Source: a virus. From it: a DNA stretch of 64,000 nucleotides. The stretch is from the IMG/VR virus record IMGVR_UViG_3300023174_000065; one strand, 5' to 3'. The notes beneath the pieces are model-generated. The model had not been told where the DNA came from and made no database searches. It saw only the letters and a program-made list of their open reading frames with translations. Positions 61,013 through 62,118 of the stretch are shown here, piece after piece; the stretch's first letter is position 1; each line of letters starts with the position of its first letter. The position numbers were made by a program, and so were the translations under genes.

Positions 61013-61249
61013 TCAAAAGAATGGCATACCGCTTTCTTTAGACAATGTTAAGTTATCTTCTATTATCTTGTAAATGATTTCTCTGCTTTCTTGATCTAGC
61101 ATATAGGCCTCATTTGTGCTGATTCCTCCTCTTAAGAACCAACAGATTTTAAACAATTCTTTTTTTAGTTCTTGTGTATCATTCTCAAGGCTCTTAACAT
61201 AACTTTCTATTTCATCATTATCTAACGTTAAGAGCCTTGTCCGAAAAAA
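61013..61249 (-). CDS. Start-less gp51-like ORF, predicted to be expressed by -1 frameshift from the upstream gp26-like gene
   Basis: FFRTRLLTLDNDEIESYVKSLENDTQELKKELFKICWFLRGGISTNEAYMLDQESREIIYKIIEDNLTLSKESGMPFF*; in-frame TAA just upstream and no early start codon. Confidence 0.75.
   Translation of the reverse strand, partial: FFRTRLLTLDNDEIESYVKSLENDTQELKKELFKICWFLRGGISTNEAYMLDQESREIIYKIIEDNLTLSKESGMPFF
61186..61249 (-). promoter_or_regulatory. Programmed -1 ribosomal frameshift signal
   Basis: Slippery T TTT TTC (61249-61243) followed after 3 nt by perfect 13-bp stem CAAGGCTCTTAAC/GTTAAGAGCCTTG (61227-61239 with 61186-61198). Confidence 0.8.
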
Positions 61250-62118
61250 TCCGAATTATCCATTGTAATGGGAATATAATAAGTTTCAGGAGCACCTTTA
61301 TCTATATGTTCAGGTTCGGCTCGTACCATGACTGGTTGTATTCCTTGTTTCTCTCTCATCGTTAATACATGAGATTGAATTTTTTTAGATATAGAACTAT
61401 CAGAATTTTCTATGAATTCTTTAATGAACACTTTATCAGTTACTATGGCGTGTGGAGTTTGAATTGATTCTATACTTTCTACTATAACATCAATTGTAAG
61501 ATCGGTCATGGATTCCACACTTTTGTTAAATAATTTAATTTTTTGATCCTCTTCAAGCTCACTATCATTAACTGATTGTATCATGCGTTGTACTTCAAAA
61601 GTTTTCAAACTTACTTTAGACATGTGTTTATAGGTCAGTGGCTTAATAAAACAAGTTATTTCATCATTGCATTCTACTGCCTCTTGCCATGCAGGTCCTT
61701 TATTAACTTCATCCAGTAATATTCTAAGATCAATTTGGTGAGTTACTGACTCGTCTGTATTAGGAACATTATGTGTAATATCCATCATTTCACCGTAAGA
61801 TGATATTCTTATTGCTATTAGAATAGTATCAATATCGGTTGCTGGAGTTAGCCACGCATTTTTAATGTTTGGCATGCAACTTTGAATAACTTCTACTATT
61901 GCTTGACCATTTAATAGCGCATCGGGAGTTTTGAAAATTAACTCATCTCTTGCAGTCATGGAAAATACAGGATATAATCCATTTTCAGTGATATCTATGC
62001 TACCTGTTTGCCAGTATAGACCATTACTAGGTAGACTTATGTATATTTTTGGATGACGCATATAACCCATAAGTGGATTACTAGATGATTCTAAACTGGA
62101 TGAAAATGAACTACTCAT
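61228..62118 (-). CDS. gp26: Baseplate hub assembly / tail chaperone protein (T4 gp26-like), paralog B
   Basis: NPL..YMRHPKIYISLPS.G.YW; MTARDE; DIDTILIAIRISSYGE. Confidence 0.7.
   Translation of the reverse strand: MSSSFSSSLESSSNPLMGYMRHPKIYISLPSNGLYWQTGSIDITENGLYPVFSMTARDELIFKTPDALLNGQAIVEVIQSCMPNIKNAWLTPATDIDTILIAIRISSYGEMMDITHNVPNTDESVTHQIDLRILLDEVNKGPAWQEAVECNDEITCFIKPLTYKHMSKVSLKTFEVQRMIQSVNDSELEEDQKIKLFNKSVESMTDLTIDVIVESIESIQTPHAIVTDKVFIKEFIENSDSSISKKIQSHVLTMREKQGIQPVMVRAEPEHIDKGAPETYYIPITMDNSDFFGQGS

Follow-up and report, generated by a model that had tools for sequence, protein, structure and literature searches.

How is a phage gene decoded when its last codons contain a run of thymines and a second open reading frame (ORF), which lacks a usable start codon, opens in the -1 frame at just this point? 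The question is raised by a gene on the minus strand of IMG/VR virus record IMGVR_UViG_3300023174_000065, in a stretch of 64,000 nucleotides that is referred to here as the window. The DNA comes from lake-water metagenomes and is in no RNA run among those listed for it, and tblastn places it in a group with the 284-490-kb phages RaK2, 121Q, PA5oct, CBB and Atu_ph07. The gene belongs to the family that includes gp26 and gp51 of phage T4, and the answer proposed here, to which a probability of roughly 0.8 is given, is that it encodes a gp26/gp51-family chaperone decoded as two proteins of 296 and 368 amino acids (aa) by -1 slippage.

Slip site and predicted products

The 296-aa protein read in the 0-frame matches Pfam family PF12322 ('T4_baseplate') with 37.0 bits, the curated threshold being 24.5, and phrog_150 ('baseplate hub') at 2.4e-12. 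The 3' end of its ORF reads GAT TTT TTC GGA CAA GGC TCT TAA, where the stop codon occupies 61230-61228, and the sequence T_TTT_TTC within it is a heptamer in the canonical X_XXY_YYZ register (Table 1). In the -1 frame a TAA at 61258-61256, two codons upstream of the T-run, is followed by 80 sense codons and a TGA. The earliest ATG, GTG or TTG in this frame is a TTG at 61156, which is codon 34. Translation through the slip site gives a computed trans-frame product of 368 aa which, at the level of sequence, shares its N-terminus with the 296-aa protein. The predicted tryptic peptide across the junction in the window phage is GAPETYYIPITMDNSDFFR, and the C-terminal peptide of the 0-frame product ends ...DFFGQGS. 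A preliminary description of the locus, made from the letters of the window, had proposed a programmed -1 frameshift in a gp26-like gene with products of 296 and about 368 aa, and its reading of the minus strand at the 3' end of the gene, of the heptamer, of both -1 frame stops and of the missing early start agrees with what is given here; its length of 79 codons for the -1 frame has to be corrected to 80.

Conservation of the slip site

The comparison covered 166 homologous loci, which represent 144 unique contexts and include ten cultured jumbo phages (RaK2, 121Q, PA5oct, CBB, BF, Atu_ph07, Phosso, XacN1, Xoo-sp13 and Vibrio 2.275.O). The heptamer is in register at all 166 loci, and in the unique contexts it reads TTTTTTC 140 times and TTTTTTT four times. 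The codon that precedes the heptamer is always NNT in the 144 contexts, and this holds across eight amino acids (serine, for example, is always AGT), whereas the overall frequency of a third-position T in the same genes is only 51%.

Relatives at various distances tell the same story. A tblastn query with the extension peptide finds matches that overlap the gp26-like gene at its end in four phages (Atu_ph07, Phosso, Xoo-sp13 and RaK2), and in all of them T_TTT_TTY stands in register exactly where conservation of the -1 ORF begins. T_TTT_TTY is kept in 85 of 85 loci whose proteins are 24-60% identical. In nearly all loci of a first IMG/VR set (eighty loci, 41-60% protein identity) the 0-frame stop follows 1-4 codons past the heptamer, and the first ATG of the -1 ORF is scattered from codon 3 to codon 49 with no conserved start. 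The extension is 76-77 codons long in 81 of 84 loci, and the -1 frame of most loci becomes open no more than a few codons upstream of the slip site. A second scan, which was seeded with the extension motif, returned at least 598 stretches; among the 80 of them that were analysed, the frameshift layout with an invariant TTTTTTCG is present in 75 of these more distant loci. Six more cultured phages (PA5oct, 121Q, CBB, BF, XacN1 and Vibrio 2.275.O) have the same layout. T4 gene 26 and the extra paralog in the window spell the corresponding FF motif TTC TTT, which is non-slippery.

A hairpin downstream of the heptamer

Downstream of the heptamer the RNA of the window can form a stem of 13 perfect base pairs, or of 15 base pairs with one G.U pair, after a spacer of 3 nt (GGA). 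The stem and its short spacer had been pointed out in the preliminary description, and the fold proves to be well beyond expectation, with a minimum free energy of -21.3 kcal/mol, a z-score of -4.69 and no equally good fold in 200 shuffles. An Rfam search found no family over the hairpin, its sole match being a chance microRNA (E 0.8).

Minimum-energy folds of the 100 nt that follow the heptamer were obtained for 85 loci, and in nearly all of them a hairpin begins 0-8 nt, mostly 3-6 nt, past the heptamer. The 5' arm, (U)AAGGCUUUUGU, is under constraint from the codons for R-x-R-L-L. The position of the 3' arm varies: most loci have it at about 62 nt, the window and some others have it at about 45 nt, a third group at about 30 nt and RaK2 at about 90 nt. 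Because the 3' arm is found at different distances, it seems that evolution has exchanged the pairing partner, and has done so repeatedly.

Covariation was tested with 53 sequences of the commonest hairpin class, which share a 16-bp helix, against 500 shuffles and controls in which the helix was slid. In this set 88.6% of the helix cells are paired, and double changes at six pairs amount to 58 cells, where the shuffles give 21. For covariation the score is 0.227, compared with 0.112 in shuffles; none of the 500 shuffles reaches it, and the slid controls stay at or below 0.085.

The extension as a protein domain

The extension behaves as a protein-coding sequence that starts at the slip site. 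Over the 78 columns of its alignment (A2) the mean column identity is 63%, with F1, F2, R3, W37, R40, G41 and N66 invariant, and the conserved part of the peptide begins exactly with the FF-R at the slip site. A profile of the extension matched 458 proteins among 1.84 billion representatives. Most of these are short miscalled ORFs which start at arbitrary profile positions, from 1 to 39. In about 20 others, which measure 319-351 aa, the extension follows the PF12322 body in frame. These natural fusions have ...F-R-x-K-L-I... at the junction, where there is just one F and the T-run is missing.

An AlphaFold2 model of one in-frame fused protein has a predicted local distance difference test (pLDDT) value of 90.7 and a predicted template modeling score (pTM) of 0.85, and in it the extension consists of helices spanning residues 263-338. 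The BFVD folds nearest to this model belong to baseplate hub assembly proteins (E 1.7e-15). A Foldseek search of the PDB with the model gave no match at E <= 0.001, and VIA-align against the PDB gave only generic helical-hairpin matches with Z of at most 8.3. Judged by sequence and model together, the extension is a conserved, predicted helical domain of the same polypeptide as the PF12322 body.

The in-frame relatives also differ in gene content. A short paralog of 272-331 aa, which does not have the extension, adjoins the fused gene in five of five in-frame IMG/VR loci, and frameshift loci normally contain a single gene. Since loci with an in-frame fusion carry a second short gene while frameshift loci manage with one gene, both a short and a long form appear to be needed. 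This argues that slippage and gene duplication may be alternative routes to the same pair of short and long proteins.

Relationship to T4 gp26 and gp51

PF12322 is matched end to end by T4 gp26 (208 aa) as well as by gp51 (249 aa), which carries about 48 additional residues at its C-terminus: gp26 ends ...EFFELL, and gp51 continues past ...VFKLL. Leiman et al. 2010 (PMC3004832) count both among the hub assembly chaperones and state that the particle does not contain gp51. PF12322 and phrog_150 match the window gene as well as the two T4 proteins. In both systems there are a short and a long form with a common body and a C-terminal tail on the long form, and the genes, T4 gene 26 included, are divergent from the cluster that contains the tape measure gene. 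T4 uses two genes, however, whereas in the window both forms would come from a single gene by -1 slippage. The tail of about 48 residues in gp51 compares with an extension of 76 residues in the window, and the window has an extra short paralog besides. Also missing from the 296-aa protein are all four cysteines of the two zinc-ribbon-like CxxC pairs, which do not vary among the in-frame relatives (alignment A4) and occur in T4 gp26 and gp51, RaK2 and Atu_ph07. The missing CxxC pairs are a lineage difference inside the PF12322 family, and membership of the window protein stands.

The start-less ORF itself had been called gp51-like, which does not hold, since gp26 and gp51 share the PF12322 body and the ORF resembles only the C-terminal tail of gp51 (77%). 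When a broad extension profile of 164 sequences was compared with this tail by hhalign, the probability was 76.8% (E 2e-5), with the last 36 columns of the profile aligned to gp51 residues ~222-249. The phrog_150 alignment of one fused relative (P0127) reaches profile position 270, which is in the part found in gp51 only. Comparisons of the extension with gp51 that used single sequences or narrow profiles were not significant. That the extension is homologous to the gp51 tail is probable but not established. By the same sequence comparisons, the gp51-like form is the whole predicted trans-frame product and not the start-less ORF alone.

Proposed mechanism and alternative explanations

Decoding of the window gene very probably involves a programmed -1 frameshift, a conclusion which the register, the conservation across 144 contexts, the covarying hairpin and the conserved extension back about as strongly as comparative analysis allows. 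Most ribosomes would read GAT TTT TTC GGA and stop at the TAA a few codons on, which would yield the 296-aa short form. A minority would stall with two tRNA-Phe on UUU-UUC as the 13-15-bp hairpin blocks the mRNA entry channel; these ribosomes would then slip back by one base to UUU-UUU and read 76 codons in the -1 frame to the TGA, yielding the 368-aa form. Both the occurrence of slippage and its efficiency are what we infer from this arrangement. A chaperone role of the products is suggested by the family, the position of the gene and published reports. As in lambda G/GT, the shared N-terminal body might handle the tape-measure or hub protein, and the extra domain of the long form might recruit tube or hub subunits; such a role is proposed because of the published assignment of the T4-like chaperones and the position of the gene near a tape-measure-like gene.

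Alternatively, RNA polymerase could add one U in the T6 run, so that the fusion mRNA would be in frame and no ribosomal shift would be required. This would suit a site that is a homopolymer run and the occurrence of T7 in four contexts. T runs of six are short for efficient polymerase slippage, though, and selection would favour longer runs, whereas exactly T6 followed by C is kept in 140 of the 144 contexts. Moreover, the strict codon register and a covarying hairpin at 3-6 nt would be irrelevant to a polymerase, which makes transcriptional slippage unlikely.

Another reading, the one embodied in GenBank records, treats the downstream ORF as a small gene in its own right that is translated by re-initiation or from a non-canonical start. 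Small ORFs have been called in this position, for example 121Q gp595, CBB_249, BF_0247 and the members of phrog_18291. Such a gene should have its own start and no slippery site, but the homologs with the frameshift layout do not look like this. Their first ATG wanders between codons 3 and 49, library fragments start anywhere from profile position 1 to 39, the -1 frame of the window has no start codon before codon 34, and peptide conservation begins precisely at the FF-R encoded by the slip site. In addition, the natural in-frame fusions place the domain in the same polypeptide as the body. A separate gene is accordingly a very improbable explanation. That the layout reflects a homopolymer error in sequencing or assembly, or a decaying gene, and that the ORF is truly continuous or a pseudogene, is hardly credible: homopolymers are error-prone and a few relatives are truly in frame, but the out-of-frame layout recurs in 144 unique contexts from independent assemblies and in ten cultured finished genomes, contigs of two other studies cross the T-run of the window (61243-61249) with no insertion or deletion, and the in-frame relatives differ at the junction (a single F and no T6) and carry a second short gene.

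Several observations weigh against a frameshifted chaperone of the gp26/gp51 type. The long product in these phages is a prediction from sequence. The spacer of 3 nt in the window is below the usual 5-9 nt, and the lowest base pairs must therefore open when the ribosome is on the slip site. The frameshift gene and the tape-measure-like gene are divergent, with a paralog in between. Narrower extension profiles gave probabilities of 2-13% against the gp51 tail, PF28602 does not figure in the domains precomputed for the fused relatives, and phrog_634 matches T4 gp51 and none of the extensions. Finally, the preliminary description had named both T4 gp26/gp51 and lambda G/T for comparison: the T4 gp26/gp51 family is matched, but neither sequence nor fold comparisons (Pfam tail assembly chaperone [TAC] families, Foldseek against the PDB, VIA-align) revealed any similarity to lambda G/T-type chaperones.

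Comparison with known tail assembly chaperones

The slip site of lambda is G_GGA_AAG, which works without a required structure. The -1 frameshift that yields lambda gpG and gpGT is reportedly conserved in long-tailed phages, as Levin et al. 1993 and Xu, Hendrix & Duda 2004 (Mol Cell 16:11) are said to have found. The window gene is like lambda G/GT in that it lies in a tail module near the tape measure gene and in that its product would not be part of virions, to judge from CBB. In the table of CBB virion proteins identified by mass spectrometry, the homolog of the tape-measure-like gene, CBB_251, is represented by 29 peptides and the gp26-like CBB_250 is absent. The two systems differ in that the window has the heptamer U_UUU_UUC with a strong hairpin, and in that its gene is divergent and one gene away from the tape-measure-like gene, whereas the lambda gene is immediately upstream on the same strand.

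Another parallel for the slip site is a poly-T frameshift that has been proposed in Pakpunavirus and Andersonviridae (PMC12846349). These myoviruses also have a slippery T-run at the TAC-N gene's 3' end, their downstream ORF is routinely misannotated as hypothetical, and the case for frameshifting was made from conservation alone. They differ from the window in the protein family, in the motif (GTTTTT) and in the position of the gene directly upstream of the tape measure gene.

For T4-like phages, the tail assembly chaperones were identified by Vladimirov, Gautam & Davidson (Virology 2022, 566:9-15; PMID 34826709), according to the passages that refer to this work in PMC10885494 and PMC12846349. 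The PRFect summary of it describes some T4-like phages as having a short gene and a longer gene that fuses the short gene and a downstream part, and the 2025 paper PMC12846349 refers to it in connection with slippery poly-T sequences in 'TAC-N genes of T4-like phages'. As far as these passages go, the idea of a G/GT equivalent among T4-like chaperones is already published, and T-run slippage in T4-like chaperone genes has probably been published too. The genes named in the 2022 work are reportedly 26 and 51. The view taken in the preliminary description, that gp26/gp51-like proteins of this lineage are the equivalents of G/GT, thus agrees with the 2022 assignment as these passages relate it, and it fits the absence of CBB_250 from the virion table.

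Annotation of the long form

In none of the GenBank records inspected is the fusion annotated; the extension is either a truncated 'hypothetical protein' or has been left empty. Gene callers had been suspected of missing the fusion, and a truncated call or an empty stretch is what every cultured relative inspected has (Table 1). The family phrog_18291 appears to be made of such miscalled fragments of the extension. Full-text literature searches found no report of a frameshift in gp26-like genes or in jumbo phages.

Table 1. Positions of the features discussed, in the window and in the loci of cultured relatives
Feature	Sequence	Position	Strand	Remarks
gp26/gp51-family gene, 296 aa, 0-frame short form (TAC-N-like)	Window	61228..62118	-	PF12322 and phrog_150
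Slippery heptamer T_TTT_TTC, 0-frame register (GAT TTT TTC)	Window	61243..61249	-	
-1 frame extension, 76 codons past the slip site and TGA at 61015-61013	Window	61013..61249	-	Predicted C-terminal helical domain of the 368-aa form
Predicted stimulatory hairpin	Window	61186..61239	-	5' arm 61239-61225, 24-nt loop, 3' arm 61200-61186
Short paralog, same family, 291 aa	Window	62118..62993	-	phrog_150 at 1.4e-10
Divergent tape-measure-like virion protein gene, 5' part, runs off the window	Window	63060..63998	+	phrog_14121
Extension, unannotated or truncated call	RaK2 (L004)	3034-3399		
Extension, unannotated or truncated call	121Q (L171)	1528-1737		
Extension, unannotated or truncated call	CBB (L172)	1567-1743		
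Extension, unannotated or truncated call	BF (L173)	1564-1743		
Extension, unannotated or truncated call	XacN1 (L174)	1743-1925		
Extension, unannotated or truncated call	Vibrio 2.275.O (L175)	1543-1746		
Extension, unannotated or truncated call	Atu_ph07 (L001)	3115-3237		
Extension, unannotated or truncated call	Phosso (L002)	3010-3240		

The frameshift form might be widespread, and possibly ancestral, as the route to the gp26/gp51 pair in jumbo phages of the RaK2/121Q/PA5oct/Atu_ph07 type and their uncultured aquatic relatives, with an unusual hairpin whose 5' arm is fixed and whose 3' arm occupies at least three positions, and with the two-gene lineage of T4 and the in-frame-plus-paralog lineages derived from it. 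This proposal is a tentative one, for which the odds are a little short of even. If both forms are needed, T4 genes 26 and 51 can be seen as a frameshift pair supplied by duplicated genes. As the principle of short and long chaperone forms is already published, the gain lies in breadth and detail. It includes the correction of a systematic annotation error, by which the long chaperone form is absent from every cultured jumbo phage record inspected. Should the 2022 work not extend to these jumbo phages or to the RNA element, what is said here of them is unpublished, and dozens of reference genomes would then need a joined coding sequence. For studies of frameshifting, U_UUU_UUC with its hairpin offers a conserved signal with ample natural covariation.

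Neighboring genes and the wider window

The short paralog next to the frameshift gene has a stop codon that overlaps the start of the latter (TAATG), an arrangement consistent with translational coupling. Of the frameshift-type loci examined, just the window and L005, its closest relative, have a paralog in such a position, and this lineage may make three chaperone forms.

Beyond the paralog lies the divergent gene that starts at 63060 on the plus strand. Several lines, none of them decisive, suggest that it encodes a tape measure protein. It shares phrog_14121 with RaK2 ORF088, to which it has a weak BLASTP match (E 4e-6), and ORF088 was compared to a tape measure protein by the authors of the RaK2 study. 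Full-length relatives of the protein have 693-1159 aa, and the nearest named clusters in the ESM Atlas are tape measure proteins (score 0.93). Its CBB homolog, CBB_251, is moreover plentiful in virions. A tblastn search of cultured phages with this gene gave no match, a Pfam search of the tape-measure-like proteins found no family, and the gene finds no counterpart in the nearest record (G001). The frameshift gene had been placed beside the tape measure gene; it is indeed near, but in the window the paralog stands between the two. In most relatives the frameshift gene does directly adjoin the tape-measure-like gene, yet the two are divergent.

On the other side of the locus, a 133-aa ORF with no family match (60592-60993, plus strand) is convergent with the end of the extension, and the ~0.9 kb before it (59730-60600) contains short ORFs only. 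The window also holds gp55-, gp47- and gp46-like genes. Downstream of the gp46- and gp47-like genes, an ORF of 143 aa (59301-59732, plus strand) matches phrog_447, which is labelled NAD synthetase, at 1.4e-37; it has weaker matches to homing-endonuclease families and may be a mobile endonuclease. Giant ORFs are present as well, and large ones on the minus strand span 30600-43988 (4462 aa), 43991-47344 (1117 aa) and 49879-53706 (1275 aa).

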